Source of the DNA: an uncultured bacterium
GTDB lineage: Bacteria; Latescibacterota; MWCZ01
NCBI GenBank assembly: GCA_964510105.1
Contig: CAZEAI010000001.1
Span: 74,693-138,692, forward strand
DNA length: 64,000 nt
Direction: 5' to 3'
Shown here in pieces: positions 14,295 through 30,287 of the stretch. Position 1 is the first letter of the stretch; the number at the start of each line of letters is the position of its first letter. The notes beneath the pieces are model-generated. The model searched no databases and had not been told where the DNA came from. It was given only the letters and a program-made list of their open reading frames with translations. The position numbers and the translations under genes are program-made.

Positions 14295-14347
14295 GGAAAC
14301 CCCCTCGGTGGCGCGGCTGATCGTCCTGAGCGAATCAGCAGATCACT

Positions 14348-15076
14348 TCATATCATGAGCAGAACGCCGAGAATCAGCACAAGAGCCGACACGAGGCGCC
14401 CGAAAAGCTTCTGGTCGACCCGGTTGAAAACGGCGATTCCGATGCTCGATCCGACGAGTATCGCCGGCAAGAGCGCGCCGGCGGACTTCAGGAGTGGTCC
14501 GTTAAGCGACCCCTCCGCGACGAGCGCGATTGTTTTGATCGCCGTTGCCGCGAAAAAGCACGTCAGGAGCGTCGCTTTGAACACCTGTGGCGACCATGGC
14601 TGACGCGCGGCGAACGCGATGAGCGGCGGTCCGCCGATGTTCGTCGCGCCACCGACAATGCCGCCGAGCAAGCCTGCCGCGTATCCCCACGCCGTACTGA
14701 GAGCCTTACGCTCCCACCGTTCGCCAAGCAGCCGCGTGATGCCCACATAGAGCAGAAGCATGCCGACCAGCAATCGTATCAGCGCCGTCGACCCTCCGAG
14801 CAGCAGAGCCAGCCCCAACGGCAGGCCCGCCACCATGCCGACGACCATCGGCCCGACGTTCCGGAGGCGTACCGAGTGGCGGACGCTCCAGAGGACGATC
14901 ACGATGTTCGACGTAGACAGCGGCGCCATCATGATGGAGGCCACCTTCGCATCGATGAGAAGCACACTCAGCCCCATCGAGACCATGCCGAAGGCGAACC
15001 CGACCGCTCCCTGCACAAACGCGGCGAGCAGGATTATCAGTTCGAGCATGAGTAACGTCTGGAGGTCGAACGCCAC
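14348..15076 (-). CDS. TauE/SafE (TSUP) family membrane exporter
   Basis: About 240 aa, highly hydrophobic, with the two-repeat architecture and glycine-rich helices typical of TSUP. Confidence 0.7.
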   Translation of the reverse strand: MAFDLQTLLMLELIILLAAFVQGAVGFAFGMVSMGLSVLLIDAKVASIMMAPLSTSNIVIVLWSVRHSVRLRNVGPMVVGMVAGLPLGLALLLGGSTALIRLLVGMLLLYVGITRLLGERWERKALSTAWGYAAGLLGGIVGGATNIGGPPLIAFAARQPWSPQVFKATLLTCFFAATAIKTIALVAEGSLNGPLLKSAGALLPAILVGSSIGIAVFNRVDQKLFGRLVSALVLILGVLLMI

Positions 15077-15077
15077 G

Positions 15078-15488: not shown

Positions 15489-15634
15489 CGAGCAGTCCGA
15501 TCCCAGCCTCGCACGAGATCACAACGTGATGTCCGCACCGGGTTTGGTCCGACATCCGGACCGCTGCAGACTCCCGAGTGATCGCCCAGTCGTTTGTCGG
15601 CAATGTAGAAGCACGCAAGTGCAGAGGAGTATGG

Positions 15635-16327
15635 ATGTATCACAGCCGGATCTTGCGCCTGACAGTGGTGGCGTCGCTCGCCGTTTCGTGTGCCGGGATG
15701 CTCGCCTGTAGTGAAGACAGCAACCCGCTCGCAGCCGCCGAGGAAATGGTCGGAATTCACGCCGGTCCCAACACGGCGATCACCACCGCCAACGCGGCAG
15801 CTGCTATCGACTCAATCATGAGTCCGCTCGGAGACGGCATCTTTGAGGTGCTGGTGATGGCCAACCCAGACTTCCAGGAGCCATCCCGCGACGCCGCGGC
15901 GGTTACGGCGGACATCACGCCGGTCGTCTTGCAGGGCGCTGACATTTTCTACGACGACGACGGTAACAGCACCGGTAGCGGCACGATGTCGGTAACCAGC
16001 GGGAGCCTCGTAACCGACGTGAACGCCACAACCGGCGCCGGCACTGTGAAGCTCACCATCGAGGTCGATCTCAACGACTTCTCTGCCGACGGCTTGCTGT
16101 TCCTCGGTGGCTCGCACGAATCAACAATGACCATCACACTCGGCGCCGGCGGGGAGATCGCCGGACTAATCGCCGTCATCGATGCCGACATCGCCGTCGC
16201 TGGAACGCTCAGCGGCGCTCTCTCGATCGACCTCACCATCACGATGACCGGGGAAGAGGATACCGTTGCCGTCGGAACCGCCATCGTGGACGGCACCCCG
16301 GTAGCGATCAACATCACGGATTTCTGA
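15635..16327 (+). CDS. Hypothetical lipoprotein (Thr/Gly/Ala/Asp-rich, repetitive)
   Basis: ATG at 15635 preceded by AGGAG; lipobox LAVSCAG; low-complexity beta-rich body. Confidence 0.5.
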   Translation: MYHSRILRLTVVASLAVSCAGMLACSEDSNPLAAAEEMVGIHAGPNTAITTANAAAAIDSIMSPLGDGIFEVLVMANPDFQEPSRDAAAVTADITPVVLQGADIFYDDDGNSTGSGTMSVTSGSLVTDVNATTGAGTVKLTIEVDLNDFSADGLLFLGGSHESTMTITLGAGGEIAGLIAVIDADIAVAGTLSGALSIDLTITMTGEEDTVAVGTAIVDGTPVAINITDF

Positions 16328-16387
16328 CATCATATGGCGATGCGGTATCCACCGCCGCGACGCCATGGGAGTCCGGCTATCACGAAG

Positions 16388-16417
16388 AAGGGCGGTCCGA
16401 ATGGGCCGCCTTTCTCC
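16388..16417 (+). terminator. Rho-independent-type terminator (possibly bidirectional) between the lipoprotein gene and GRE-1
   Basis: GC stem GGGCGGTCC..GGGCCGCC followed by TTTCTCC on the + strand; lies between convergent genes. Confidence 0.5.
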
Positions 16418-16444
16418 GTGTACAACGCTGTTGGTAACGCCGGA

Positions 16445-18646
16445 CTACGATAGCGCATGCTCCGTCCGCTGGATGATCTCGTCCTGCAGCGGACGCGAGA
16501 GGCGCGTGAAGTAGTCCGAGTACCCCGCGACCCGGACGATGAGATTCGCGTGCTCCTCCGGGTGGTCCTGCGCCTCCCGCAGGAGATCGGACGACACGAC
16601 GTTCACCTGCACCTCGAAGCCGCCGAGGTGCAGATATGTCTCCAGCAGGTCGATCGACTTCTCGCGATCGTCCGAAGACTCGAACATCGACGGCGTGAAT
16701 TTCACATTCGTCACGATCCCGCCGACGAATTTCGTGTGATCTATCTTCGCCGACGAACGCAGCATCGCAGTGACGCCCGAGGTATCATGCCCCTGCACCG
16801 GTCCCACGGAGTCCGCCAGCGCCTCGCCGGCATGACGCCCATCGGGAGTCGCACCGGTCCGCTCACCGAACGCGGAGTGCACAATCCAGCACAGATATCC
16901 GGGCTGATAGGGTCCACCGCGCGGATTTCTATACTGCCGGGTCTCGCCATACCAGAATTCCGAGAACTCGTTCCAGAGGTTATCGGGTTCCTCGTCGTCG
17001 TTGCCGTACCGCGGCGGCTTTGAGCCCATGAGGTGCCGCAGAGCTTCCTCGCCCTCCCAGTCGCGCCGCATGATATCGGCAAGATCGGGCAGCGACACTG
17101 CCTTCTCCTCGTACACCGCCCAGCGGATCGCGAGTAGTCCGTCCACCACGTTTGACAGCCCCACCAGTTCCGGCATCGTGGGGTTGTGGCGCGCGCCGCC
17201 GCACGTGAAGTCCGTGGCGCGCTCGATGCAGTCGCTCACGAATGTGGAGAGCAGTGGATACCGGACCGTCTCCATCCAGCCGCGGTCCCACGCCGCAGTG
17301 ATCTCGTGGTTGTACTTCATGGCCTGGGCGAGGTCGGTGCGGAACTCGTCGACGATCTCCTCCCACGCGGGCTGAGCGCCGCTCTCCTTCGCGCGCTGCC
17401 CGACTCGTTGGACGACTCGTTCAAGGGCCTTGCCCGCGTTCACATAGCCCGACGCCACCCACGGGTTGGAGCAGCCGATCGCGCTGATCTCCACGCACGA
17501 TCCGGCCATGTAGTTGACCGCCTCCTCGCGAGTCACGCCGTCGCGCATGAGCCCGGGAACGATCGCCTCGTCGTTGAATACCGCCGGGAACCCGATTCCC
17601 GTACCCATGAGCCTGACGGATTCGCGCATCACGTCGCGGTCGAGCTTCGGATGCCAGCTCACACACAGCGCCGGATGAAGCATCTGCAAGTCGTGCGATA
17701 CCTCAAGGCAGAGCAGCGACACCTCGTTCGACGCGTCCTCACCCTCGGGCGTCTGGCCACCGACGAACAGCGTCTGCGGGACGGTGTACGGGTCGAACTC
17801 GCTGTATTTCAGGAAGAGGCACGCGAGTGTCTCGTAGGCGCTCTCTTCGTTCATGCGCCCCTGCTCGATATCGCGACGGTAGTACGGCCCGAGGTACTGA
17901 TCGACGCGCCCTGGACAGAAACACCCGTGACCGTGACCGTTCAGCTCGATAACGACCCAGATATGCACGAACCAGAGCAGCTGCGCGGCCTCGCGATATG
18001 TCCGCGGCGGCTCCGACGCAACGTGGCCACACACTTCGTGGATGCGGATCAGCTCGGCCTGCCGCGGGCCGTCGGTCTCCATGGCCATGAGCCACGCGGC
18101 CTCGGAATACCGACGGGCGTACCGCATCGCTCCCGTCAGCGCGTAGGCCATGCCGCGCAACGCGTCACGCTCATCACCGGTTGTGTCCTTGAGCCGTGCC
18201 GCGACATCGTCGCGCAAGCCCGCGAGCCCTTTCTTCAGTATCGTCGGGTAGTCGGGCGTGAGGTGGCCGGTCATCGCCCCTCCCGCACCGTGTCGACACT
18301 CCGCCACCGACTCATGGGCGTCCGGCGAAATGAGCGGCTCGACAACCGCGCTGCGCGCTTCGCCGAGCGTATCCGGGTCCAGGGAGTCAAACTCCGCCTG
18401 TTCCTGTTCGCTCGGCTCCCGCCGCAGCCACCGCCCGACGATGAGTTCGTCCGGGCCGATCTCAACGGGCAGCCGCTCCAACGTGTCGTGAAGCGTCTTG
18501 CCGTAGCGAGCACCTATTCCTTCATCGGCATGGGCGCGGATGCCGCGAGCCCACAACAACTCGCGGTCGACGAAGTATCCAGACTGCTCGAACAGCCACG
18601 CTCGTATGCGTCCGATGCGGTCCGTGCGAAGAATCGGCTGAATCAT
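16445..18646 (-). CDS. Glycyl radical enzyme 1 (PFL-like fold; eliminase/dehydratase type, substrate unknown)
   Basis: C-terminal glycine-radical motif RVAGYSDYF; Cys loop AGSCVEIS (Cys-x-Glu as in glycerol dehydratase/CutC/HypD-type GREs, not the Cys-Cys of PFL); about 730 aa. Start trimmed to MIQPILRTDRIGRIRAW at 18646, because the track ORF (to 18766) has a 40-aa junk extension. Confidence 0.85.
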   Translation of the reverse strand: MIQPILRTDRIGRIRAWLFEQSGYFVDRELLWARGIRAHADEGIGARYGKTLHDTLERLPVEIGPDELIVGRWLRREPSEQEQAEFDSLDPDTLGEARSAVVEPLISPDAHESVAECRHGAGGAMTGHLTPDYPTILKKGLAGLRDDVAARLKDTTGDERDALRGMAYALTGAMRYARRYSEAAWLMAMETDGPRQAELIRIHEVCGHVASEPPRTYREAAQLLWFVHIWVVIELNGHGHGCFCPGRVDQYLGPYYRRDIEQGRMNEESAYETLACLFLKYSEFDPYTVPQTLFVGGQTPEGEDASNEVSLLCLEVSHDLQMLHPALCVSWHPKLDRDVMRESVRLMGTGIGFPAVFNDEAIVPGLMRDGVTREEAVNYMAGSCVEISAIGCSNPWVASGYVNAGKALERVVQRVGQRAKESGAQPAWEEIVDEFRTDLAQAMKYNHEITAAWDRGWMETVRYPLLSTFVSDCIERATDFTCGGARHNPTMPELVGLSNVVDGLLAIRWAVYEEKAVSLPDLADIMRRDWEGEEALRHLMGSKPPRYGNDDEEPDNLWNEFSEFWYGETRQYRNPRGGPYQPGYLCWIVHSAFGERTGATPDGRHAGEALADSVGPVQGHDTSGVTAMLRSSAKIDHTKFVGGIVTNVKFTPSMFESSDDREKSIDLLETYLHLGGFEVQVNVVSSDLLREAQDHPEEHANLIVRVAGYSDYFTRLSRPLQDEIIQRTEHALS

Positions 18647-18732
18647 GTTATGTTGCCTTTCGTGCGATTTGGATGGCGTGTGTATGCTGAACAACCTCGC
18701 CCACGGCTCAAGCCGCGGGCTACATGCTGCGA

Positions 18733-18841
18733 AGTCGGCTGAAGCCGACTGCGTGCCGCCAACCATACCCGTGCCCAGCCACCTTCAGGTGGCTTGTCGT
18801 TCGTAGCCCGACACCAAACGTAGCCCCCGGCTTCAGCCGGA
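18733..18841. promoter_or_regulatory. Array of three GC-rich hairpins with an identical TTCA/TGAA tetraloop in the GRE-2/GRE-1 spacer
   Basis: agtcggcTGAAgccgact (18733-18750), agccaccTTCAggtggct (18777-18794), ccggcTTCAgccgg (18827-18840). Each has a 5-7 bp GC-rich stem and a 4-nt loop; they fill the 85-bp gap between the GRE-2 stop and the GRE-1 start region. Confidence 0.4.
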
Positions 18842-18851
18842 GGGCGACGAA

Positions 18852-21233
18852 CTACAGTTCCGCGTGCTTCGTCCGAGCGATGATGTGATCCTGCATGGTC
18901 TTGTCCAGCAGACAGAAACGCATGCTGAAGCCTGATACGCGCACGGCTATATGCCCGAACCGCTCGGGATCGGCCTGCGCCTCGCGGAGCGTCTCCGAAT
19001 CGATCACGTTGAACTGCATCTGCCCGACGCCCTCATCCACCGCGGCCTGCATGGCGTCGAGCACCTTGTCGAGACCGCTGCCCGCGAGCAGCTTCGGCGA
19101 CAGCTCGATGATCGCGCTCGACGACCCCGCCGCGTGCTCGTGCGGAAGTTCCATGAGCGAGCGGAGCATCGCCGTCAGCCCCTCCTGATCCATGCCCTGC
19201 GTCGCCGACACGCTGTACGCCAGCGGATCGTGCGCGAACCGGCCGTCGGGAGTCGCATTCGTCGCTCGACCGTGATCGAGGTGCCAGACGAAGCTGAAAA
19301 GGTGCGCGTGAAACGACCCACCGTGCGGGGTCGTGTACGTGGCCATATGGTCGCAGTAGTGTTGCGCGGCGCGAGCGACCCAGCGATCGACTTCCGCCAC
19401 GCCGTTGCCGTACTTCGGTATTCGGTTGACGATGAACTGCCGCTCGGCCTCGCCGCCTTCCCAGTTCGTGCGCAGAAGGTCGAGCAGCGTGTCGGCCGAC
19501 ATTGTCCCGTCGCCGAATACGAGCTGCTCTACGGCGTGAATCGAGTCGCCCACGTTCGGCAGCCCGATAGCGCACGTCGAGTGGTAGTGGTATCGCGCGC
19601 CGCCAGCGGTCATGTCCGTGCCGCGACCGATGCAGTCTTCGGTTAGAATCGACGTGTACGGCAATGGGTTCCGCAGGTAATCCTCGGCGTCTCCGCGGTT
19701 CGAAAGCTCCACGGCATGCCGGGCGAAATGTTCGACCTGCGCGGCGTACGCAGCCCATAGCTCCTCGACGTCGCTCATGTTGCACAGTTCGCCGGTTCGC
19801 GGGCCGACCTGCTCGTTGGTCTTGAGATCGCGACCGTCGTTGAGGGCGAGTTCGAGACACTTCGCCGTATTCATCATGTGGCTGACGGCGTGCGGATTCG
19901 TCCTGCCGGGAATCGTCACTTCGACGCAGCCGATGATGGCGTAGTCACGGGCTTCCTCTACGGGAATGCCCTTTTCGACAAGCGCCGGTACGATGGCCTC
20001 GTCGTTGAAGAAGAACGGCACACCACCTCCGCGCCGGATGATCCGGAACGCGGCCTCCAGCAGCCTCTTCGGCGTCCCCCGATGCACGCGTACCGACATG
20101 CAGCGGATCAGGTTCACCCGCCACACAGCCTCGAGGAAGAGATACGTCACGTCGTTCGTTGCGTCCGATCCATCGGACAGCACGCCGCCGATCGTCGCCT
20201 GCTGGACGTCGTAGCTCTTGTACAGCGCGAGGTGGAGCGCCTCGAGGATCTCCAGCGCATCGTCCGGGGTGGTGCGTCCGGACGCGATGTCCGCCTCGTA
20301 GCAGGGATTGAGATACTGGTCGTACCGCCCGAACGAGTTCGCGTTGATCCCGTCTTCCCACCCCATCACGAGATGTCCGAACCAGAGCGCCTGCGCCGCT
20401 TCGTGGAACGTTCGCGCCGGCTTCGCGGGCACTCGCTCACATATCTCCGCGAGCCGTCGGTACTCTGTCGCCTGCGCGGCGTCGGGCTCCGCATCGGCCA
20501 TCCCGTTCAGATGCGCGGCGAAACGCCTTCCGAGCCCGCACGCCGCATCGGCGATCGCACGGGCGGATTCCAGCCAGGGGCGCTTCCGCTGATCCTCGGG
20601 CCGCCATGGCTCCAGCGCGGCGAGTTCGGCGTCGACGCGGTCGCGGATGCCTTCGAATCCTTCGCGTATGATCGTCTCGTACGACGGTACGGTATGCCCG
20701 CCGCTTCCGCCCCAGCCGAAGAACATGCCTGCGTCGATGTCCTTCTGGATGTAGTCGGGGAGCGGAGTCGCGAGCGGCTCCATGCGGCGCGGATGCTCCG
20801 CCCACCAGTCGATTGCATCGTGTACGCGTCGTTTCCAGTCGTCGGGGATGCTCAGGCCGTCCACGCGTTCGTGGGTTTGCGCGGCATGGTCGGGATTACT
20901 GAGCGGCTCACACTCGAGCCAGCCGATGCCGCGGAAGGACTCGTGCTGCTGGTAGCCGACGATGATCTCGCCGGGGCGAATCCGAATCGGATAGCCGCGG
21001 ATGACGTTCGCGAGCGCCAGGGCCTGCCGGACAATCCATGGCCGGTCTTCCGTCTCGCGCATGCTCTCGGCTACGAGCCAGGCCCGCGGGGCGTAGTGGT
21101 CTCCGTAGTCGGCGTCATCCGTCGCGTACTCGCGGAGGCGCTCCACGCGAGGCGAGAGATCGACGCCGTGCGCGCCCTGCACGACTTCGGAGTCGTCTGT
21201 TCGTGAGGTATCGGCGGCTAACACGTCGGACAT
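18852..21233 (-). CDS. Glycyl radical enzyme 2 (PFL-like fold; eliminase/dehydratase type, substrate unknown)
   Basis: C-terminal glycine-radical motif RVSGFSMRF; Cys loop IGCVEVTIPG; 793 aa; clearly paralogous to, but divergent from, GRE-1. Confidence 0.85.
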   Translation of the reverse strand: MSDVLAADTSRTDDSEVVQGAHGVDLSPRVERLREYATDDADYGDHYAPRAWLVAESMRETEDRPWIVRQALALANVIRGYPIRIRPGEIIVGYQQHESFRGIGWLECEPLSNPDHAAQTHERVDGLSIPDDWKRRVHDAIDWWAEHPRRMEPLATPLPDYIQKDIDAGMFFGWGGSGGHTVPSYETIIREGFEGIRDRVDAELAALEPWRPEDQRKRPWLESARAIADAACGLGRRFAAHLNGMADAEPDAAQATEYRRLAEICERVPAKPARTFHEAAQALWFGHLVMGWEDGINANSFGRYDQYLNPCYEADIASGRTTPDDALEILEALHLALYKSYDVQQATIGGVLSDGSDATNDVTYLFLEAVWRVNLIRCMSVRVHRGTPKRLLEAAFRIIRRGGGVPFFFNDEAIVPALVEKGIPVEEARDYAIIGCVEVTIPGRTNPHAVSHMMNTAKCLELALNDGRDLKTNEQVGPRTGELCNMSDVEELWAAYAAQVEHFARHAVELSNRGDAEDYLRNPLPYTSILTEDCIGRGTDMTAGGARYHYHSTCAIGLPNVGDSIHAVEQLVFGDGTMSADTLLDLLRTNWEGGEAERQFIVNRIPKYGNGVAEVDRWVARAAQHYCDHMATYTTPHGGSFHAHLFSFVWHLDHGRATNATPDGRFAHDPLAYSVSATQGMDQEGLTAMLRSLMELPHEHAAGSSSAIIELSPKLLAGSGLDKVLDAMQAAVDEGVGQMQFNVIDSETLREAQADPERFGHIAVRVSGFSMRFCLLDKTMQDHIIARTKHAEL

Positions 21234-21328
21234 GGGGTCTCCCCGCGAGCGGTTTCGGACCGGCGGTCTGCATGAATGTACCGATCAGCGGTGGAAATGT
21301 ACGGCGACGCGCCTGGTACCGAAAGGAT

Positions 21329-21366
21329 GTAGGGGCCGGCGGGGCGAACACGGGGCTCGCCCCTAC
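21329..21366 (-). terminator. Putative terminator hairpin downstream of the PhyH-family gene
   Basis: GTAGGGGC...GCCCCTAC 8-bp stem enclosing a GC-rich inner hairpin; followed, in minus-strand sense, by AUCCUUUCGG. Confidence 0.35.
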
Positions 21367-21385
21367 GACATCGACCATCGCCGAT

Positions 21386-22165
21386 TCAGTACGCCTCTAT
21401 CGTCTGCCAGTCGAGCTTCGGCCGGACACCCTTTACCATGTAGCCGGGGCGCGTCAGGCCTTGCCCGCCTTCCTGCCGGTTGCGCGGGTCGCGGAACCCG
21501 AGCCGCACGATGCGTCTCCAACGGCCACTGTGATTCACCGCTGATCCGTGAATCGTCCAGATGCTGAACAGCACCACGTCGCCCGCCTTGGCCGGTACGC
21601 TCACCGCGTCCTCCAGCCGGTACTGGTCCGTCGGCAGGTGCGGCGCGGTGTCCTCTCCCGTGATGTGCTCCAGCTTGCCGAGCTTGTGGCTTCCCGCGAG
21701 GAACTTGATGCAGCCCGCCAGCTCATCCGCGTCGTCGAGGTGCACCAGCGCGTCGACGTAGCGCCCGTCCCTGTGCGGGTAGAACGGCAGGTCCTGGTGC
21801 ATCGGAAACGGCGCGCCCGCGTCGGGCGACTTCGCGTGGAGCGTCGAGTGGTGCAGCTCGACCTCGTCCGAGCTAAGCACCGCCCCGACGGCGTCCGCGA
21901 GCCCCGGCGTGCTGATGGCGCGATTCCACGCGGCGGAGTAGTGCTGGAGTTCGTGGATCGCCACAAGCTGCGCCTTCTCCTCCTCGTCGGCGTCGAGGTA
22001 TTCCTCGCGCCACGGCCCGCGCCATGCGGCGTTCCAGTCGGCGAACGTCTCCATGACGTAGGTCAATTCGTCGCTCATGCGAGCGAGTTCGTCGGGCGCG
22101 TAGACCTGCTTGAGATGGAGGTAGCCGTTCTCGGCGTAGAAATCGACCTGTTCCTGCGAGATCAT
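21386..22165 (-). CDS. PhyH-family Fe(II)/2-oxoglutarate-dependent dioxygenase
   Basis: HxD...H facial triad candidates (HQDLPFYPH ... TIHGS) and a phytanoyl-CoA-dioxygenase-like N-terminus (ENGYLHLKQV); about 260 aa. Confidence 0.7.
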   Translation of the reverse strand: MISQEQVDFYAENGYLHLKQVYAPDELARMSDELTYVMETFADWNAAWRGPWREEYLDADEEEKAQLVAIHELQHYSAAWNRAISTPGLADAVGAVLSSDEVELHHSTLHAKSPDAGAPFPMHQDLPFYPHRDGRYVDALVHLDDADELAGCIKFLAGSHKLGKLEHITGEDTAPHLPTDQYRLEDAVSVPAKAGDVVLFSIWTIHGSAVNHSGRWRRIVRLGFRDPRNRQEGGQGLTRPGYMVKGVRPKLDWQTIEAY

Positions 22166-22336
22166 CGTGTATCCCTTGAGCGCATGGGGTAGGAGCGTAG
22201 CGTATCGGGATACAAAGATGGAAAGAATGAGCGAGCAGTCAATAAACGAGTGGCGATGCGGCGTTCGTGCTGTCTCGGGAGCGAGGTCGGGGATGTGGTG
22301 GCACTGTCACCGTGTTTGCGCCCTCTCTGGCCGAAT

Positions 22337-23017
22337 TCAGTCGTTCAGCAGCCGCACGGCGTCAAACAGCCCTCGCTCGGATGATAGAATGGACCGGCCT
22401 GCGCCTGCAAAGTCACCGGTGGCATCAGTGAATTGCGCTCTCTCAAGCGCCACACCGGGCTTGCCGATGAGGCTCGTTATCGCACCGGACGCGTCGGTGA
22501 ATGCGATCTGCGCGCCATAGGAGGCTTGGCACAACACCGACATTCTCACTCGCTGAAGCTCGTCGAGGAATTGTAGGGAACTTGCGGAAGTTGTGGGCGG
22601 GTCTCCCGCAGAAAGACCCATACGAGGTCCAGCCTCGTCAGCTAGAATCAGTGTATGCGGAAGGAGGATTGCGCGATATCCGGCGTTGCCAGCTCGCAAC
22701 GTAAGAGACCCCTCGCTGATCCTAGTGTGCCACGAGGTGGGCTGTCCTACGGTGATGCCGCTCCCGGCAATGCTAACAAGCGTCCGGCCATCGCCGCCTA
22801 CAACAACGAGGCTATCACCAAGCCTGATCGTCCTCGCAGTCAGACTGACCACTTCAAGATCGTCTGGAAGGCCCGATGTGCTGTTCATCAGACCGCACGA
22901 CACGATGGCCGCGAGCGCCAACGCGAGACCCATCGTACCCGCGACCAATCGCCTGTTGGCGCTCTCTAGGCGCCGCAGACGTGAATCCATCTCTTCACCG
23001 TGCGGTGAGTGTGACAT
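22337..23017 (-). CDS. Hypothetical membrane-anchored protein (short coiled-coil N-terminus, one TM, about 170-aa extracytoplasmic domain)
   Basis: ATG at 23017 preceded by GGGGGA (RBS-like, minus sense); TM segment LVAGTMGLALALAAIVSCGL; no recognisable motifs. Confidence 0.4.
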   Translation of the reverse strand: MSHSPHGEEMDSRLRRLESANRRLVAGTMGLALALAAIVSCGLMNSTSGLPDDLEVVSLTARTIRLGDSLVVVGGDGRTLVSIAGSGITVGQPTSWHTRISEGSLTLRAGNAGYRAILLPHTLILADEAGPRMGLSAGDPPTTSASSLQFLDELQRVRMSVLCQASYGAQIAFTDASGAITSLIGKPGVALERAQFTDATGDFAGAGRSILSSERGLFDAVRLLND

Positions 23018-23114
23018 GGAGTTATCCCCCTTGTTCTGATCGGCAGCTAGGAAGTATCCGTATGTCTCCGACGGAACAGTAGTAGGCCGCTTCACTGAGC
23101 GCAACAGCCCGCCC

Positions 23115-24074
23115 CTACTCCCGCGTCACTTCCACGCCGTGGTGGGCGAACACGTCGGCGACCGCGGATATGTCCTCCTCCGACGGCGCGTCCGTGCCGG
23201 TGAGGGTGTAGTCCCTGCCGAACTGCTCGTACTTGCTTTCGGCGAGGCGGTGGTAGGGCATGATGTTGAGCTGCTCAAGGCGCGGATTGCCCCACAGCTC
23301 GCCGACGAACGTCGCCATGCGCTCGACGTCTTCCGGGTCGTCCGTGCAACCGGGGATGAGTGGGAAGCGCAGCCACACCGGCGGACCGTCGTCACCGGAG
23401 AGGATTTCCCGCAGATTCGCGATGACCAGCTCGTTGGAGACGCCGGTCAGGCGTCGGTGCAAGTCGTCGTCCAGGGCCTTCAGGTCGAAGAGCACGAGGT
23501 CCGCCATCGGGACGATGCTTTGCACGGTCTCCGCTGGAGCGTATCCGCACGTATCGACGGCGCAGTGGAATCCGCCGTCGCGCGAAAGCTGCAACACCGC
23601 TCGCGTGAATTCGGGCTGGAGCATCGGCTCGCCGCCGGAGAGCGTGATGCCACCGCCGGAACGCTCGTAGAACATCTTGTCCCGCCCGGCAAGCTCGACG
23701 GCCTCCCCGGCCGTTGTCTCGCGCCCGGCGATCTCAAGCGCTCCTGTGGGACATCCCTCGATACAGACGCCGCACCGCACGCACGCGTCGCGGTCGTACT
23801 CGTGCGTATCCCCTTCGATCCGGTGCCCGTCGTGTTCGCACGCCTCGACACACTGCGAGCAGAACAGGCACTTCGCCGGGAGATACCGGATGTCGCGCCG
23901 GGCCTCCATCGACTCCGGATTGTGACACCAGAGACACCGCAGCGGACAGCCCTTGAGGAAGATCGTCGTACGGATGCCGGGTCCGTCGTGTATCGAGAAG
24001 CTCTGGATATCGAAGATGCGCCCCGTCACGGATTCCAGGTCGGCGACGGTGCTCGCGTGGGCGGGTGTGGTCAT
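23115..24074 (-). CDS. Glycyl-radical-enzyme activating enzyme (radical SAM, with two auxiliary ferredoxin-like [4Fe-4S] motifs)
   Basis: Radical-SAM CPLRCLWCHNPES (CxxxCxxC) plus CLFCSQCVEAC and CVRCGVCIEGC clusters, and the glycine-rich SAM motif GGEPML. This three-cluster architecture is typical of activases for non-PFL GREs. Start trimmed to MTTPAHA at 24074. Confidence 0.85.
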   Translation of the reverse strand: MTTPAHASTVADLESVTGRIFDIQSFSIHDGPGIRTTIFLKGCPLRCLWCHNPESMEARRDIRYLPAKCLFCSQCVEACEHDGHRIEGDTHEYDRDACVRCGVCIEGCPTGALEIAGRETTAGEAVELAGRDKMFYERSGGGITLSGGEPMLQPEFTRAVLQLSRDGGFHCAVDTCGYAPAETVQSIVPMADLVLFDLKALDDDLHRRLTGVSNELVIANLREILSGDDGPPVWLRFPLIPGCTDDPEDVERMATFVGELWGNPRLEQLNIMPYHRLAESKYEQFGRDYTLTGTDAPSEEDISAVADVFAHHGVEVTRE

Positions 24075-24307
24075 CGGGGTGCCTGCGCTCCGGCGTAACG
24101 GGTATCGAGGGCTACCGACCGACGAAGATACGATGGGCCTGCCGGTCGGAGGAACCCTTGGTACGTTCACAGGCCGAAGCTAGTGTACCGGAGCCGGCAT
24201 CACGCGTCGCGACCGCCGTCCCTCCGAACGAGGTGGCGAGTCGCATGCGCAGCACCACCAGCCACGCAGCGATCGTCGTTCTGAGTGAAGCGAAGAATCT
24301 CTCGCGC

Positions 24308-24319
24308 CGCGATATCGCG
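24308..24319. promoter_or_regulatory. Perfect 12-bp palindrome CGCGATATCGCG about 45 bp upstream of the URO-D-like operon, in the divergent promoter region shared with the activase gene
   Basis: Read directly from the sequence; candidate operator for a dimeric regulator. Confidence 0.3.
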
Positions 24320-24361
24320 ATTCCGAACGCAGCGTAGAATCTCCCACCGTCTGGAGACTAG

Positions 24362-25453
24362 ATGACCGACCGCGAACGCATGACCGCCATCATGCGCCAC
24401 GAGCCCGTCGACCGCGCGATCTGGCAGCCGAGGCTTGAGCACTGGTACAACACGAACAAGCGCCAAGACACGCTGCCCGAGTCGTACCGAGAACTGTCGC
24501 TGCTCGACGTGTACGACGATCTTGGCTGCTCAATCCGCGCGTACGATTTCTACAACCAGGCCATCGAGCGCCTGCCCATGGAGGGTGTGTCGCTGGATGT
24601 CGTCGAGGAGTCGGCGCGGCACAGCGTCGGGCGGCTGAGCACGCCCGTCGGCACGCTGGAATGCGTGGCGGGCAAGACGGCGGAATCGTCGCTCCTGCGA
24701 GAGTTCTTCATCAAGAGTATCGACGACATACGCGTCTACGAATACCTCCTTGAGAAGCAGGAATTCCACTTCAATCTCGATACATTCCGCGAGATGGACG
24801 AGCTCGTCGGCGACCGTGGCGCACCGGTGATGTTCAACCTGCGCACGCCGCTCATGCGGATGTTCATCGAGACGATGGGATTCGAGAACACCATTGTGGC
24901 CATGCACGAGCACCCGGTGGAGATGGAGCGCTACGTCCGGCTCATGGAGGAGACGGACCAGCGCTACTACGACATGGCGAAAGGGTGCCCGATCGACGCG
25001 CTCAACTTCGGCGACAACGTCGACTCGAACATGCTACCGCCCAGTCTGATGCGAGAGTGGACCCTCCCGTACTACCAGCGCCGCACGGCGGAAATCAGAG
25101 ACGCCGGCATGGTCTCGTATCCGCATTGGGATGGCGCGCTCGCCGGCCTGCTGCCGTTCATCTCGGAGGCGGGGTTCGACGGCTACGAGGCGCTCACACC
25201 CGAGCCCATGGGCGACGTGACAGTCGAGGCCATCGCCGACGCCATGGGCCACGACTACTTCATGATGGACGGCATCCCGGCGTCGGTATTTTGCGAGCCG
25301 TTCACAATGCAGGAGGTCGAGGATTTCGCCATACGCGTGCTCGACCTCTTCGCGCCAGGCCTGATTCTGGGCGTGTCGGACGAGCTTCCGCCCGACGCGG
25401 ACATCGAGCGAGTACGTCTCGTTGCGGAAATCGTGCGAGACTACAGACCGTAA
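24362..25453 (+). CDS. Uroporphyrinogen-decarboxylase (URO-D)-like family protein 1
   Basis: N-terminal ERMTAIMRHEPVDRA and the central GFENTIVAMHEHPVEMERYV region resemble the URO-D-like/MtaA-like TIM-barrel family; about 360 aa. Confidence 0.55.
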   Translation: MTDRERMTAIMRHEPVDRAIWQPRLEHWYNTNKRQDTLPESYRELSLLDVYDDLGCSIRAYDFYNQAIERLPMEGVSLDVVEESARHSVGRLSTPVGTLECVAGKTAESSLLREFFIKSIDDIRVYEYLLEKQEFHFNLDTFREMDELVGDRGAPVMFNLRTPLMRMFIETMGFENTIVAMHEHPVEMERYVRLMEETDQRYYDMAKGCPIDALNFGDNVDSNMLPPSLMREWTLPYYQRRTAEIRDAGMVSYPHWDGALAGLLPFISEAGFDGYEALTPEPMGDVTVEAIADAMGHDYFMMDGIPASVFCEPFTMQEVEDFAIRVLDLFAPGLILGVSDELPPDADIERVRLVAEIVRDYRP

Positions 25454-25520
25454 CCACCCGACACTCGGGCAGCCTCGCAGCACGCGGTGTCCAAACGCAA
25501 CGACACAGGGGAACGATACA

Positions 25521-26810
25521 ATGGCATCATCAGCCGACTCACCGGTGATCACCGAACGCGACCGCACAATCCTGCGCGACGTGGCGTCGCGGTACATGGA
25601 GATCGCCCACAGCGCGAAAAATGAGGAACGGCGACGCCTCTGGACCGATCACAACGATCTGCGCGAGTCGCGTCCGCTGGTGCTCATCGAGTCGTTTCCG
25701 GCGACCGATACGATGATCACGCCCGATGTACTGGAATGCGAGCAGGAGTCGTCGCGCGGACTCGAACGGTCGCTACGCGTGAAGATCGCGCACTTCGAGC
25801 ACGTCGACGACGACGACGTTGTCGAGCCATACATCACCGCCAACTGGAGCGTGAGTGGCACGGGATACGGCGTCGCCTCGAAGCGCGAGTTCGCACCTGA
25901 CCGAGAGACCACCGACCACATCAGAGGCAGCTACGTGTGGGAAGCGCCGATCCAGAACATAGAACGCGACTTCCACAAGCTCACGCCTCGTACCTTCACC
26001 GTCGACCGCGATGCCACGCATGACCGGGTATCCCACCTGGAGGACGTATTCGGCGATGCGCTTCCGGTGCGGATTCGTGGTGGATTCTGGTGGACAACGG
26101 GCATGACCATCGTCGCCATCGATCTCATCGGCCTCGAGAACCTCATGCTCTACATGTATGACGATCCCGACGGACTCCACCGCATCATGGGATTCCTGCG
26201 CGACGATCAGGTCGCCTACTCGAAGTGGCTTGAGAGCGAGGGTCTGCTCACGCTGAACAACGAGGGCGACTACATCGGCTCCGGCAGCCGCGGCTACACG
26301 ACCGATCTCCCGCAGTCGGACTATACGCCGGACTCACCGCCGCGCCTGCGTGACCTGTGGGTCCTCTCCGAGTCGCAGGAGACCGTCGGTGTCGGACCGG
26401 AGCAGTTCCGCGAGTTCGTCCTGCCGTATCAGAAGGATGTCGTCGGTCTGTACGGGCTGACCTACTACGGCTGCTGCGAGCCCGTCCACAGCCGGTGGAA
26501 GGAACTCACCGAGTTCTCGAATCTGCGCAGCGTATCTATCTCCCCGTGGGCGGACGAATCGTTCATGGGCGAGGCCCTCGGGCGAGACTACGTCTACAGC
26601 CGGAAGCCGAATCCGACGCTCATCAGCACGACCGAATGGGACGAAGAGGCCATCCGGGCCGACATCCGCGCGACGCTCAACGCCACGAAAGGCTGCAACG
26701 TCGAGATCGTTATGAAGGACGTTCACACGCTCTCCGGCGAGCCATGGCGCGCCGCGCGCTGGGTCGAGATCTCGCGCGAGATCATCCGCGAGTTCGGCTT
26801 CGACGCGTAG
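25521..26810 (+). CDS. URO-D-like family protein 2 (divergent paralog of the upstream gene)
   Basis: ATG at 25521 with a GGGGA RBS; shares GLENLMLYMYDDPDGLHRIM with the GFENTIVAMHEHPVEMERYV region of the upstream gene; C-terminal ISPWAD motif; 429 aa. Confidence 0.45.
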   Translation: MASSADSPVITERDRTILRDVASRYMEIAHSAKNEERRRLWTDHNDLRESRPLVLIESFPATDTMITPDVLECEQESSRGLERSLRVKIAHFEHVDDDDVVEPYITANWSVSGTGYGVASKREFAPDRETTDHIRGSYVWEAPIQNIERDFHKLTPRTFTVDRDATHDRVSHLEDVFGDALPVRIRGGFWWTTGMTIVAIDLIGLENLMLYMYDDPDGLHRIMGFLRDDQVAYSKWLESEGLLTLNNEGDYIGSGSRGYTTDLPQSDYTPDSPPRLRDLWVLSESQETVGVGPEQFREFVLPYQKDVVGLYGLTYYGCCEPVHSRWKELTEFSNLRSVSISPWADESFMGEALGRDYVYSRKPNPTLISTTEWDEEAIRADIRATLNATKGCNVEIVMKDVHTLSGEPWRAARWVEISREIIREFGFDA

Positions 26811-26823: not shown

Positions 26824-29205
26824 GTGGCGAATCGAGTAGAGATCAACGAGGGAGACACCGGCGGCAGCACGATTGCCGTCGCCGGACTTGCCACCGCGCT
26901 GGGCCCGCTCCATCGGCGGGTCACCATCGACGGCGGCGAGCACTGCCTCTCGACGATTACCCGGGATGCCGAAGACACTCCGCGCGGCGAGCGGATCGAA
27001 TACCGCGGTCCGGGCTCTCCCGTGCGACTCGTGGAGTTTCGCTCGCCGCTGGACGACGGCCTCCGCAGCGAATTCCTGCTGGTGAACGATTCACCGAAAC
27101 GCCTCGTGCTGAACTCCGTCGAGCTGCTCGGATTGGACGCGGTCGGCTGCGTCGGATTCGACTCGGGGGCATCCCGCCTTCGCGCGCTCGAACAGGGGGC
27201 GTACTGGGGCCACGTCGTCGACTTCGCACCCGAATCCGGCGAGCGCGACGGCGCATCCGACCTCGTATGGGTCCTCGCCGACGAAGCAAGCGGCGCATCG
27301 ATGCTTGTAGGATTCGAGACGGCGCACCGCTGGAAGGGCACGATCCAGACGCGCGTCGTTGGTGAGGAACTCGCGGCGTTATCCGTTGGCTTCGACGGCG
27401 GCGACACAGCCATCGAGCCGCGAGCGACGGTGCAACTCGAGGACTTGCTGATACTCGCCGGCGACGACCCGCTGGACCTGCTGGATCGGTACGGCGAGAC
27501 CACCCGCGCGCGCCACCAGCCTGATATCCTCGCCGAGTCGCCCGTCACGTGGTGCTCATGGTACCCGCACCGCCTCGGCGTCACTCACGAACGGGTGATG
27601 CGAAACGCGCGCGTCGCCGCCGAACGCCTCAAGCCGCTCGGACTCTCGACGATGCTGGTCGACCTGGGCTGGCAGGAGGGGTGGCTGCCGAGCATCTTCG
27701 ACGAGAAGGACGAGTTCCCCGGCGGCCTGCGGGCACTTGCGGACGACCTCGCCGAACTCGGACTCGACCTGGGAGTCTGGTCCGCGCCGACCTCCATCAG
27801 CGCGCACGACCCGGTCGCACAGGAGCGCCCCGAATGGCTCGTCCCCGGCGAGGACGGGTCGCCACGAGAGGCGGGGACATGGTTCTGGGCGCCGCACGGC
27901 CCCATTCACATCCTCGACCTGACGCATCCCGGCGCACGCGGGTGGCTACGCGAGCGCATCGCACTGCTGGCGGAGCGAGGCTGCCGGTATTTCAAAGGCG
28001 ACTTCGTCGGGAACATCCAATCGGGCGACGCGAAGCGACGGCACGACGACTCCATCGTCGGAGGCGGCGGGCTGGAAACGGGGCACATCGCCGCGCGAAT
28101 CTTCATGGACGCCCTCCGCGAACACCGGCCGGACGCGCTCGTGCTGTCGTGCGGCGGCCCGGAGCTGCCCGGCCCCAGCGCCTCGAACCTGCTCTACTCG
28201 TGCGACGACACCGGCAACACCGGCTACGTCGGCTGGGAGCTTCTGAGGCGAACGCAGCTCTCCATCGCGACGCACCTGTTCAAGCACCGTCGCTGGGGCG
28301 TCATTCAGCCGTCATGCATGAGCACCGGCCTGCCCGGCACGATCGACGAAGCGCGCGTCAGAGCCACGACGGCGTTCATGTCGGGCGGCCAGATCGACAT
28401 CGGCGACGATCTGACGAAACTGCCCGAGGACCGCTGGCGTATCCTCACCGCGACGTTGCCTCCGTACGGCAAAGCAGCCCGACCCATCGATCTGTTCACG
28501 CCGATCCAGCGCGCGCGCGGCGGCTACAGCACGGCCACGGTCGGGACGGGGATCGATCTGGCGGGTGTGCCTCCGGCGCCGCCGGCATCGGTGTGGGCGC
28601 TGCCCATCGACGCGGGGTGGGATTCCTGGACACTCGTCGCCGTGTTCAGCTATGATCTTCCGGACATCGCGGGCGACCGTGGTGAGGCCCAACTCGATAC
28701 GTTCTTCCTGCCCGTCGAGCGCCTGGGACTTCCGCCGCGAGACGATCTCTGGGCATACGAGTTCTGGTCCGGCCAGTTCTCCGGAAATCTTCCCGCCGAT
28801 CCACCACCGATGCCGGACTACCAGCATCCCGGCGACATGCAGTCGCTTGTTGCGCGACCGGACTCCGGCACGCTCGCGGTGAGCTTCTTCGGACCGGGCG
28901 TGAAGCTGCTCGCCGTGCGACGCGCTCCGGATCATCCCTGGGTCGCCGGAACGGACTTCCACCAGTCGTGCGGCTTCGAACTCGCGGATGTGCGATGGGA
29001 GCCGGGTACAGGCACACTCTCCGGCAGTATCGACCGTCCCGCCGGCACATGTGGAGCTATCGCGCTGGCGGGGTTCGGAGCATCGAACCCGCACGCCACT
29101 GTCAACGGCAGCCCGGCGTCTGCCCGGACGGGATCGGGCGGTTCACTGGTCGTACCGGTCTCCGTCGAATCCGAAGGAACGCTCTGGGAGGTCCGGTTCG
29201 ACTGA
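26824..29205 (+). CDS. Glycoside hydrolase, clan GH-D (GH36-like alpha-galactosidase family candidate)
   Basis: TIM-barrel entry motif TWCSWY, MLVDLGWQ (DDGW-like), and KxD nucleophile-like RYFKGDF; N-terminal beta-sandwich of about 230 aa; 793 aa. Confidence 0.5.
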   Translation: MANRVEINEGDTGGSTIAVAGLATALGPLHRRVTIDGGEHCLSTITRDAEDTPRGERIEYRGPGSPVRLVEFRSPLDDGLRSEFLLVNDSPKRLVLNSVELLGLDAVGCVGFDSGASRLRALEQGAYWGHVVDFAPESGERDGASDLVWVLADEASGASMLVGFETAHRWKGTIQTRVVGEELAALSVGFDGGDTAIEPRATVQLEDLLILAGDDPLDLLDRYGETTRARHQPDILAESPVTWCSWYPHRLGVTHERVMRNARVAAERLKPLGLSTMLVDLGWQEGWLPSIFDEKDEFPGGLRALADDLAELGLDLGVWSAPTSISAHDPVAQERPEWLVPGEDGSPREAGTWFWAPHGPIHILDLTHPGARGWLRERIALLAERGCRYFKGDFVGNIQSGDAKRRHDDSIVGGGGLETGHIAARIFMDALREHRPDALVLSCGGPELPGPSASNLLYSCDDTGNTGYVGWELLRRTQLSIATHLFKHRRWGVIQPSCMSTGLPGTIDEARVRATTAFMSGGQIDIGDDLTKLPEDRWRILTATLPPYGKAARPIDLFTPIQRARGGYSTATVGTGIDLAGVPPAPPASVWALPIDAGWDSWTLVAVFSYDLPDIAGDRGEAQLDTFFLPVERLGLPPRDDLWAYEFWSGQFSGNLPADPPPMPDYQHPGDMQSLVARPDSGTLAVSFFGPGVKLLAVRRAPDHPWVAGTDFHQSCGFELADVRWEPGTGTLSGSIDRPAGTCGAIALAGFGASNPHATVNGSPASARTGSGGSLVVPVSVESEGTLWEVRFD

Positions 29206-29213: not shown

Positions 29214-30287
29214 TTACAGTCCGATAGCGCGGGCCGGTCCCATCTCCAGCGCGTGCCGGAAGACCGCGTCCACCACGGTGAGCGTAGCGAGGGCCTCGTC
29301 AGGCGTCGGGCTCTCCGGTATGCCTTCGGCGACGCTGCGCAGGTAATGCGTGATCTCGCGCCTGAACGCCCACTCGGGCGGCGATTCGACCACCTCTCGA
29401 CGTCCTTCCCGCCCACGGTAGATCTCAATCGTTCCCGGAACGTTTCTGTGAAGTGCGGGGGGCGACGAGAACCGCAGCCATCCGCCCTCGTAGTGCAGTT
29501 CGATCCATTCCTCCCATACGCCCGGCTGCGCGGGCCCGTCCACCAGCACCGCCCGGGCCCCGGCCCAATCGAGCATGACCACCGAGGCCGGATCGGGCTC
29601 CGGATGCGACGTGATTACGCCGGTTGGCGGACCGATCCAGAATGAGATGAGATCGAGCGCGTGGGACGTGTAGTTGTTGAACCATGCCCATGGCCCGTGC
29701 AGATGACCCGGTAGCCACTCCGGCCACTTGTAGGCTGACGCTTCCTCCGGCTGGCTGTCGCCTGCGGACATGATCCCGTCCGGACGGCATTGCCAATCGC
29801 CACCGAGCGACTGGTAGCGAATCAGCCGGAGCCGCCCCATCTCGCCGCTTTCCGACCATCCCCGCACGATGTCGCGCACCTGCTCGGCCGCCGGGTCGTG
29901 ACGCCGCTGGAACGCGAGCTGCAACCGGACACCGGAACGTTTCGCCGTGTCGATGATCGCTCGCCCGTCCTCAAGGGTCGTCGCCAGAGGCTTCTCCATG
30001 AAGACGTGCTTGCCGGCGGTCATCGCGGCGATCGACAGCTCGCGATGGACCGGATCGGGCACGCTGAGCACCAGCGCATCGACGGATTCGCCGGAGAGCA
30101 TGTCCTCAAGCGATGAGTACACGGCGGGGATGTGGTAGCGACTCGCCACGAGCCCGGCTGTCTCAACGCGAGCGTCCGCCAGGGCAACGACTCGGCAGCG
30201 CTCATCCTCCGCAAGCAGGTTTGGGATGTGCGCACGCTGGGACATAAGCCCCGCTCCCACGACGCCAATTCTCACGAGATCTTCCAT
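29214..30287 (-). CDS. Gfo/Idh/MocA-family NAD(P)-dependent oxidoreductase
   Basis: IGVVGAGLMSQRAHIPNL Rossmann start and EKPLA motif. Confidence 0.8.
   Translation of the reverse strand: MEDLVRIGVVGAGLMSQRAHIPNLLAEDERCRVVALADARVETAGLVASRYHIPAVYSSLEDMLSGESVDALVLSVPDPVHRELSIAAMTAGKHVFMEKPLATTLEDGRAIIDTAKRSGVRLQLAFQRRHDPAAEQVRDIVRGWSESGEMGRLRLIRYQSLGGDWQCRPDGIMSAGDSQPEEASAYKWPEWLPGHLHGPWAWFNNYTSHALDLISFWIGPPTGVITSHPEPDPASVVMLDWAGARAVLVDGPAQPGVWEEWIELHYEGGWLRFSSPPALHRNVPGTIEIYRGREGRREVVESPPEWAFRREITHYLRSVAEGIPESPTPDEALATLTVVDAVFRHALEMGPARAIGL

Follow-up and report, generated by a model that had tools for sequence, protein, structure and literature searches.

Two different glycyl radical enzymes (GREs), both full-length and catalytically intact, are encoded one after the other in a string of genes headed by a single three-cluster GRE-activating enzyme. 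The string lies in 64,000 nucleotides of DNA (64 kb, the window) from contig CAZEAI010000001.1 of an uncultured sediment bacterium of the Latescibacterota (assembly GCA_964510105.1). By profile score neither enzyme, here called GRE1 and GRE2, falls into a characterised clade, and the order activase-GRE2-GRE1 is kept in close relatives. The cassette may encode two radical dehydratases or ring-opening isomerases that would act in parallel on different, related carbohydrate-derived substrates and share the activase, a tentative reading that is preferred here although its probability is put somewhat below even. The three genes that define the cassette are:

23115..24074, minus strand: GRE-activating radical-SAM enzyme, 319 aa (TIGR02494), first gene of the string; the open reading frame (ORF) reaches 24170 and the JGI gene call is 319 aa
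18852..21233, minus strand: GRE2, Cys-x-Glu (CXE)-type GRE of a large uncharacterised family, 793 aa (Pfam PFL-like and Gly_radical)
16445..18646, minus strand: GRE1, CXE-type GRE of a small uncharacterised family, 733 aa (Pfam PFL-like and Gly_radical)

Catalytic residues and the activase

Both GREs match the Pfam domains PFL-like (PF02901) and Gly_radical (PF01228) far above cut-off, with E values of 1e-123 and 2e-28 for GRE1 and of 2e-144 and 2e-18 for GRE2. In GRE1, numbered from the Met at 18646, the Gly loop is RVAG708YS (Gly708 codon 16523-16525) and the Cys loop is GSC384VE386 (Cys384, 17495-17497; Glu386, 17489-17491); in GRE2 the corresponding loops are RVSG768FS (Gly768 codon 18930-18932) and IGC436VE438 (Cys436, 19926-19928; Glu438, 19920-19922), and each of these catalytic codons was checked by translation. 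The mechanical ORF of GRE1 is 773 aa long, but the 733-aa start is the correct one according to the starts of homologues and the JGI gene call. The radical Gly, the thiyl Cys and the CXE Glu are invariant in family alignments of 18 GRE1 and 34 GRE2 sequences. Equally invariant in both is the position of a His (His128 of GRE1, codon 18263-18265; His180 of GRE2, codon 20694-20696) that aligns with His164 of glycerol dehydratase (GDH), His166 of propanediol dehydratase (PD) and the His of the PflD QGH motif. In GDH, His164 is the general acid for the leaving hydroxyl, and the roles of the Glu and the His in CXE chemistry have been described (PMC13450708). The initial annotation of this DNA had read two adjacent minus-strand GREs of 733 and 793 aa with intact Gly, Cys and CXE residues, which is borne out by the Pfam domains and the codons; the loss of a catalytic Gly or Cys, which it had regarded as fatal to its reading, is not seen on alignment. 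It had also taken the CXE arrangement as the hallmark of the 1,2-eliminases. The motif does mark these enzymes, which break C-O, C-N and C-S bonds, but it is shared by the newer isomerases HplG, YbiW and PflD (PMC13450708), so that the description as an eliminase hallmark was slightly too narrow.

The activase scores 337.9 bits against the NCBIfam GRE-activase model TIGR02494 (cut-off 174) and has three Fe-S cluster motifs, CPLRCLWC at residue 43, CLFCSQCVEAC at residue 69 and CVRCGVCIEGC at residue 98; that is, a CxxxCxxC followed by the two CxxCxxCxxxC motifs of a ferredoxin-like insert. The 64-kb window holds no third GRE and no second activase. The single three-cluster activase was correctly recognised from the start but was wrongly placed downstream of the GREs. 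It lies upstream of them as the first gene of the string, and the order of transcription on the minus strand is activase, a doubtful 255-aa ORF, a PhyH gene, GRE2 and GRE1, with the ORF and PhyH intervening between activase and GRE2.

Family placement of the two enzymes

GRE1 and GRE2 are 32% identical and match each other with 316 bits (phmmer). Each scores higher to characterised eliminases than to the other: the solved structures closest to GRE1 are HypD (371 bits, E 1e-109), PD (365), GDH (360) and PflD (348), and the one closest to GRE2 is GDH (423 bits, E 2e-125). The pair is thus made up of two old lineages that have been brought together. The proposal of a diverged tandem duplicate does not hold, and a recent tandem duplication is rejected because 316 bits falls below both the GRE1-HypD and the GRE2-GDH score.

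Both GREs miss the cut-off of 678 bits for the PFL2/glycerol dehydratase subfamily model TIGR01774 (GRE1 494.4, GRE2 508.4). The best NCBIfam equivalogs are HypD for GRE1 (425 bits, cut-off 1100) and HpsG for GRE2 (407 bits, cut-off 1000), and the remaining ones (CutC, HpfG, PflD, and the indoleacetate and 4-hydroxyphenylacetate decarboxylases) give 213-394 bits against cut-offs of 1000-1150, all equivalog scores being 2.4- to 5-fold under cut-off for both GREs. That neither enzyme belongs to a characterised clade, as initially proposed, is supported by these profile scores. No description of the GRE1 or GRE2 clades or of tandem GRE pairs was found in the searchable literature; a 2026 review mentions neither and describes whole GRE clades as lacking tested members (PMC13450708).

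The two families differ greatly in size. The GRE2 family comprises hundreds of clusters at 41-51% identity in metagenome-assembled genomes (MAGs) of Planctomycetota, Armatimonadota, Latescibacterota and Anaerolineae. The GRE1 family is small: 5.8 billion sequences yield about 24 clusters at more than 40% identity, and only two GTDB species representatives have a member. A GTDB genome scan returned these two true GRE1-family loci; its other 78 loci, from different GRE families, served as controls. The nearest named relatives of both enzymes are from Candidatus Latescibacterota MAGs (L007, with 71% and 61% identity, and P0136), which makes this phylum the likely source. The window sequence itself matches the JGI metagenome contig Ga0118720_1001688 (3300009374), and identical protein copies are also recorded from NCBI.

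Conservation of the gene order

All close relatives whose flanking sequence is long enough share the order activase-GRE2-GRE1; they make up 8 contigs at 70-77% identity (the window's own contig L001, L002, L007, L087, L088, L089, L090 and the P0003 contig). Outside this set the two families also occur apart: most GRE2-family genes are solo, and GRE1-like genes stand alone in L004, L006 and L171. A locus from a sequencing-run assembly (L170:232-12811, Logan SRR29054613_27163) has an activase, a GRE2 orthologue (72%), a Band_7 gene, two GRE1 paralogues of 737 and 739 aa and a GH172 gene; GRE1 is duplicated there and GRE2 is not. In L089 (17018-19204, minus strand) and also in L090 a third and very divergent GRE of 728 aa, with the Gly loop RVTGFS and a Cys loop CGCHWC that lacks the Glu, lies beside a GH123 gene at a distance of 2.5 kb from the pair. 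Two unrelated contigs encode homologous membrane proteins of about 730 aa upstream of their GRE1-like genes (L003:4498-6705 and L004:1334-3508); the C-terminal half is predicted to contain many helices, and no Pfam match is recorded.

Pocket residues and family signatures

Mapping of the substrate pocket, as the initial annotation had suggested, shows that the GDH contacts H281, S282 and D447 are replaced. In GRE2 the corresponding residues are N297, A298 and V450. GRE1 has Ala in place of D447. It retains a His in alignment with H281, but a three-residue insertion (NGHGHGCFC) displaces S282 together with its strand. Of the GDH contact set His164 is retained in both GREs.

The active-site strands of the GRE2 family are conserved as EDxINAN, YDVQQ, IGC(V/I)E(V/I)TIPG, HLF(S/T)F, PLAYS and AA(G/A)SSSAI. 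The invariant pocket-strand residues of the family (E293, D294, N297, D342, Q344, Q345, T440, H448, S451, H644, Y673, S674 and S706) are polar and uncharged or acidic, and family-specific Arg or Lys residues are absent from these strands in the window's subclade. This subclade (at least 55% identity) has (E/G)GHTVP around the catalytic-acid His (residues 178-183, 20685-20702), where the large family has NHS(V/I)R. Genes of the GHTVP type are mostly paired with GRE1 where their context is known, and those of the NHS(V/I)R family are mostly solo. The loss of the Arg in going from NHS(V/I)R to GHTVP may mark a change of substrate; specificity may thus differ even inside the GRE2 family.

The GRE1 family has its own invariant signatures, GH(L/M)T, F-C-P-G, GSCVE(I/V)S and (Y/F)LC(W/Y), and a sister group of 704-745 aa has GGDAGH(F/L)HPD, STCVEI and FFCW. 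GRE1 carries extra Cys residues on strands whose GDH counterparts line the active site: C244 of the F-C-P-G motif is invariant, C242 is present in 16/18 sequences, and the Cys of L-C586 is invariant and followed by Trp in 17/18 (the C242 and C244 codons lie at 17915-17923).

The locus and its neighbours

On the plus strand, diverging from the activase, are a URO-D-like gene, a gene for a 429-aa conserved hypothetical protein and a GH36-like gene, followed by a GFO/IDH/MocA gene on the minus strand; downstream of GRE1 are TauE, aroE, an HpcH-family aldolase, ybbR, tsaD and alr. The features other than the three given above are:

14348..15076, minus strand: TauE/SafE (TSUP) anion exporter, 242 aa, probably outside the module (Pfam TauE, E 3.6e-26)
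21386..22165, minus strand: PhyH-family Fe(II)/2-oxoglutarate dioxygenase, 259 aa (Pfam PhyH, E 2e-34)
22337..23104, minus strand: doubtful ORF, 255 aa, with one predicted membrane helix, between activase and PhyH
24362..25453, plus strand: URO-D/MtaA-like protein, 363 aa, conserved partner (Pfam URO-D 34.6 bits, cut-off 23.9)
25521..26810, plus strand: conserved hypothetical protein, 429 aa, predicted remote URO-D-superfamily member (hhalign, AlphaFold2 and Foldseek)
26824..29205, plus strand: GH36-like (melibiase-like) protein, 793 aa, probably not core (Pfam Melibiase 28.7 bits, cut-off 27)
29214..30287, minus strand: GFO/IDH/MocA sugar oxidoreductase, 357 aa (best NCBIfam match IolG, 105 bits, below cut-off)

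The spacers measure 949 bp between activase and PhyH, 152 bp between PhyH and GRE2, and 287 bp between the activase and the divergent URO-D-like gene; the G+C content of the window is 61-69%. Promoter and terminator scans gave a signal no better than that of shuffled sequence. A scan of 14000-31000 against Rfam at E <= 1 gave no riboswitch or other RNA that points to a substrate, and its only result was a sub-threshold match to the small RNA Acido-Lenti-1 at 18700-18728 (plus) in the GRE2-GRE1 spacer, on the wrong strand and probably due to chance (24.8 bits, gathering threshold 37, E 0.049).

Precomputed Pfam matches up to 10 kb either side of GRE2 include no bacterial microcompartment (BMC) shell families, either on the window contig or in L002 (BMC and EutN/CcmL, which we take to be PF00936 and PF03319), and within the same distance no aldehyde dehydrogenase, 1,3-propanediol dehydrogenase or pyrroline-5-carboxylate (P5C) reductase was found near the GREs. 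The initial annotation had noted that BMC shell genes, aldehyde dehydrogenase and a dedicated transporter are missing, and for the genes in that range this is right.

Several of the neighbours appear not to be core. The PhyH and GH36-like genes are present only in the window and in the P0003 contig, a 76%-identity relative, and PhyH is absent from L002, L007 and L087-L090; a role as core pathway partners is rejected, since they are missing from relatives of about 70% identity. PhyH is apparently intact with its HQD motif, an O2-dependent dioxygenase amid genes of O2-sensitive radical enzymes. The 255-aa ORF has a G+C content at third codon positions of 0.63, as against 0.81-0.88 in the neighbouring genes, has no Pfam or NCBIfam match and no homologue in related loci, and only a 68-aa piece of it is called by JGI; in the P0003 contig it is absent, and about 130 bp separate the activase from PhyH. 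The 949-bp stretch 22166-23114 may have been inserted recently or may not code for protein. Three of the 8 contigs (window, L002 and P0003 contig) retain TauE and aroE, always together, and aroE passes the housekeeping equivalog cut-off (261.8 vs 252), so that both are taken as neighbours by synteny. A shikimate or quinate substrate, as the "SDH" gene might suggest, is rejected because the gene passes AroE equivalog cut-offs. There is weak contextual support for the GFO/IDH/MocA neighbour as a part of the module. The survey of neighbourhoods called for in the initial annotation thus finds the URO-D-like genes conserved, but the PhyH, GH36-like and membrane ORF genes lineage-specific, and these three and TauE/aroE are placed outside the core.

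The URO-D/MtaA-like partner proteins

The initial annotation held that the locus has no substrate-defining partners, but this overlooks the URO-D-like pair, which recurs in relatives and reappears beside related GREs in other phyla. The gene for the 363-aa protein is found in L002, L007 and L089/L090 (58-64% identity), with a URO-D gene in the same place in the P0003 contig; that for the 429-aa protein is found in L007 and L089/L090 but not in L002, and a Pfam-less 425-aa gene occupies its place in the P0003 contig. The profile of the 363-aa protein matches MtaA (4ay7) among PDB structures with E 2.6e-17, covering the C-terminal half. MtaA LHICG, which we take to contain the zinc-binding His-x-Cys, aligns with lHsDG in the profile, and the window protein has H255-W-D257; the His and the Asp are invariant in 6 sequences, so that the MtaA-type His-x-Cys is absent and His-x-Asp stands in its place. 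MtaA-like proteins with His-x-Asp are also encoded at L093:12292-13290, L103:12303-13274 and L118:8890-10011, some of them translationally coupled to GRE2-family genes, and no corrinoid protein gene is found near these His-x-Asp genes.

The 429-aa protein has no Pfam match, and a sequence-profile search of the PDB was also empty. Its family has more than 3600 homologues at 52-72% identity, including members from Poribacteria, Phycisphaerae and Hydrogenedentes, with an invariant GCCEP that is followed two residues on by a nearly invariant His. The C-terminal half aligns with the URO-D-like profile (hhalign probability 93%, E 3.6e-7), and an AlphaFold2 model (pLDDT 89) gives high-probability Foldseek matches (1.0) only to URO-D and MtaA structures. 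The second of the two URO-D-like proteins initially read from the locus is thus confirmed, as a predicted member of the URO-D superfamily at the level of fold and profile-profile comparison only. The neighbourhoods of its homologues elsewhere are variable (GH20, GH43, GH30, AP_endonuc_2, Fer4 aldo-keto reductase and DUF1638). The partner proteins share with MtaA, the methylcobalamin:coenzyme M methyltransferase (PDB 4AY7), the TIM-barrel family in the case of the 363-aa protein and the predicted fold in the case of the 429-aa protein. They are unlike it in the H255-W-D257 of the former, in the GCCEP and His of the latter, and in having no corrinoid protein gene nearby.

Wider neighbourhoods and multi-GRE arrays

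Loci with at least two GREs are more frequent around GRE2-family genes (11/81) than around other GRE families (1/73; Fisher p = 0.005, or p = 0.018 without near-duplicate contigs, the control loci having been fetched in the same way). One of these (L118) has a GRE2-like gene, an activase and a GRE1-sister gene. Two GREs are translationally coupled in L003, where stop and start overlap, and coupling is also seen in L134. In this last locus (L134:1279-14042, Ga0315274_10006528) five full-length, mutually divergent GREs follow one another and then one activase; their Gly loops are RVGGYS, RVWGFS, RVAGYS, RVAGFS and RVWGFC, and one member has CQD in place of CXE.

URO-D-like genes directly adjoin GRE2-family genes on the same strand in L093 (with stop/start overlap), L103 and L118, and also lie near GRE1-related genes in L003, L012 and L166, as against 1/73 of the controls. 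The order in L003 is URO-D, membrane protein, zinc alcohol dehydrogenase, GRE and GRE1-like gene, and in L012, from Chloroflexi, it is URO-D, AP_endonuc_2, GRE, 429-aa homologue, AP_endonuc_2, GH3 and GH51. Other recurrent neighbours are GFO/IDH/MocA oxidoreductases, PfkB- and KDG (2-keto-3-deoxygluconate)-type kinases, xylose-isomerase-like barrels and glycoside hydrolases; e.g. L169 has a KDG-kinase-like gene, a solo gene of the GRE2 subclade and then a translationally coupled GFO/IDH/MocA gene, and L005 has three AP_endonuc_2 genes and a GFO/IDH/MocA gene.

Proposed mechanism and alternatives

In the proposed mechanism the activase would install the glycyl radical on both GRE1 and GRE2. The thiyl radical in each would take hydrogen from a carbinol carbon, the Glu would deprotonate that hydroxyl to give a ketyl radical, and the neighbouring C-O bond (to a hydroxyl, ring or ether oxygen) would leave with assistance from the His. 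The product would be a deoxy-keto compound formed by dehydration or ring opening, which would make each GRE a radical dehydratase or a ring-opening isomerase, and the URO-D-like proteins would process substrate or product. The non-cationic polar pocket residues and the neighbour families suggest that the substrates are neutral and carbohydrate-derived, e.g. anhydro-sugars, cyclitols, sugar alcohols or deoxy-sugars, and of all steps in the argument this one is the weakest. The differing pockets, the variable copy number and the solo occurrence of both families, together with the precedent of YbiW and PflD, point to parallel action. The initial proposal of an undescribed anaerobic module for the catabolism of a sugar-derived molecule is still the best reading but is unproven.

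A number of points weigh against this mechanism. As a rule a GRE activase recognises a single Gly loop, and the rare cross-reactivity mostly involves GREs of high similarity (PMC13450708); the loops here differ, RVAGYSD in GRE1 and RVSGFSM in GRE2. A second activase elsewhere in the genome, beyond the 64-kb window, is possible. The pocket residues are assigned by alignment to solved structures and not by a ligand model. No single conserved neighbourhood was found across the 84 loci of the wider GRE2 family, in which, besides the GRE, the activase (15/84) is the sole neighbour family present in more than 7/84, and the carbohydrate-type families are very abundant in these phyla, so that their co-occurrence could be due to chance. 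In the distant locus L003 the GRE that partners the GRE1-like gene is, at 36% identity, no clear GRE2 orthologue, and in L004 the GRE1-like gene has no GRE partner within the 3.5 kb of contig upstream; the GRE2-GRE1 pairing is thus tight within one lineage only. Beyond the intact CXE-type GREs with an activase as their shared neighbour, all of the mechanism is inferred.

The main alternative is sequential action, in which GRE2 would remove one hydroxyl from a polyhydroxylated substrate, the URO-D-like proteins or an oxidoreductase would process the product, and GRE1 would remove or rearrange a second. The tight co-linear order in the 8 related contigs and the stop/start overlap of the two GREs in L003 are what such a pathway would lead one to expect, and the arrays of 3 to 5 GREs could be multi-step cassettes. 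However, most GRE2-family genes and the GRE1-like genes of L004, L006 and L171 are solo, which argues that neither step depends on the other, and the duplication of GRE1 without GRE2 in L170 is better suited to diversified specificity; sequential action is therefore considered possible but unlikely. A heteromeric dimer of GRE1 and GRE2 would explain the single activase and the fixed order, and GREs do dimerise through a conserved interface (PMC13450708). The fixed adjacency in one lineage and the coupled pairs of L003 and L134 agree with this, but a full catalytic set is present on both chains, the copy number varies (1+2 in L170), both families occur solo, and no heterodimer is mentioned in the 2026 review (PMC13450708). 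We do not think that an obligate heterocomplex is formed, and of all the explanations weighed here this one is given the least credence.

Two further explanations would assign the enzymes to known chemistry. An organosulfonate module, in which one GRE would be a C-S lyase of the HpsG/HpfG/IslA type or a sulfonate dehydratase and TauE would export sulfite or a sulfonate product, is suggested by the TauE/SafE gene 1.4 kb downstream of GRE1, by the TauE-family exporters that accompany GRE sulfonate clusters (PMC11489063), and by HpsG as top equivalog for GRE2. Its 407 bits are nevertheless far under the cut-off, TauE is kept in only 3/8 of the related contigs and always by the housekeeping aroE, and neither sulfite reductase nor sulfoquinovose genes came to light. 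C-S lyases hold the sulfonate by an Arg/Gln/Arg triad (PMC13450708), but if the conserved His is assumed to stand at IslA Gln193, the spacing from Arg189 to Gln193 leads to Gly in GRE2 and Ala in GRE1 at the Arg189 position, and no Arg is present on the HLFSF (GRE2) or YLCW (GRE1) strand; this mapping is indirect. The sulfonate module is very improbable, and as a main model it was rejected because TauE is not conserved with the pair, aroE is housekeeping and the indirect mapping showed no Arg triad. The enzymes could instead be divergent forms of known eliminases. GRE2 would then dehydrate glycerol or 1,2-propanediol and GRE1 hydroxyproline, in keeping with their closest structures and with the JGI name of the homologue P0123 (trans-4-hydroxy-L-proline dehydratase). 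This is very improbable in view of the 2.4- to 5-fold shortfall of the equivalog scores, the replaced GDH contacts, and the lack of BMC shell, aldehyde dehydrogenase, 1,3-propanediol dehydrogenase and P5C reductase genes nearby. In addition the HypD stretch NIWDAF, which we take to hold Asp278, is replaced by GHGCFC in GRE1.

Relation to known systems

Among known systems the closest counterparts of the two GREs are CXE enzymes. GDH (C. butyricum, PDB 1R8W) and PD (5I2A) have in common with GRE1 and GRE2 the ten-stranded barrel, the RVxG and GCVE motifs, the acid His and an activase with a ferredoxin insert; they differ in the contacts that are replaced in GRE2 and GRE1, in lacking the GRE1 insertion with its two Cys, and in their BMC and aldehyde-processing genes, which are absent here. 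HypD (PDB 6VXC) shares the CXE motif, the His and the Gly loop RVAGYSD with GRE1, but GRE1 lacks about 50 residues at the N-terminus, its alignment begins only at residue 133, and no proline-metabolism genes are nearby. The E. coli isomerases YbiW and PflD open 1,5-anhydroglucitol-6-P and 1,5-anhydromannitol-6-P, two epimers (PMC13450708). They are likewise CXE enzymes and are two paralogous sugar GREs in one organism, and the PflD Cys loop VGCVELSIPGRT is similar to that of GRE2, IGCVEVTIPGRT. The E. coli YbiW and PflD genes are not adjacent and have an activase each. Unlike PflD, the window enzymes score only 388 and 375 bits against the NCBIfam PflD model (cut-off 1109), and no phosphotransferase system or aldolase is coupled to them.

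A shared activase has a partial precedent in E. coli PflA, which activates PflB, TdcE and GrcA, close homologues with near-identical Gly loops. One activase is likewise presumed here to serve several glycyl radical proteins; unlike the PflA targets, those of the window are 32% identical with differing loops, and related loci have 3 or 5 divergent GREs per activase.

Significance

The two enzymes extend a known class; the variant that is new is the conserved hetero-pair, or multi-GRE cassette, that combines a single activase with URO-D-like partners. A more far-reaching proposal, which is speculative and rather unlikely, is that the GRE1 and GRE2 families and their URO-D/MtaA-like partners make up an unrecognised anaerobic route for polyols, with a promiscuous activase that charges 2-5 GREs and with a reductive GRE1. 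Such a route would use polyols derived from carbohydrates, in sediment phyla that are uncultured (Latescibacterota, Planctomycetota, Armatimonadota and Chloroflexota), and the extra Cys residues of GRE1 (C242, C244 and C586) could supply reducing equivalents for a reductive dehydroxylation like that of ribonucleotide reductase, not a simple elimination.

Established concepts are unchanged until a substrate is found. The GRE eliminases and isomerases are nevertheless the fastest-growing class of anaerobic radical enzymes, with numerous uncharacterised clades, and the locus brings two such clades together with an activase in a form suited to co-expression. It offers a natural case in which to ask whether GREs that differ in their Gly loops can share an activase, a question that bears on the main practical bottleneck of the field. 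The recurrent partnership of GREs with URO-D/MtaA-like proteins could point the way to new reactions of sugars or cyclitols in polysaccharide degraders that are abundant yet uncultured.

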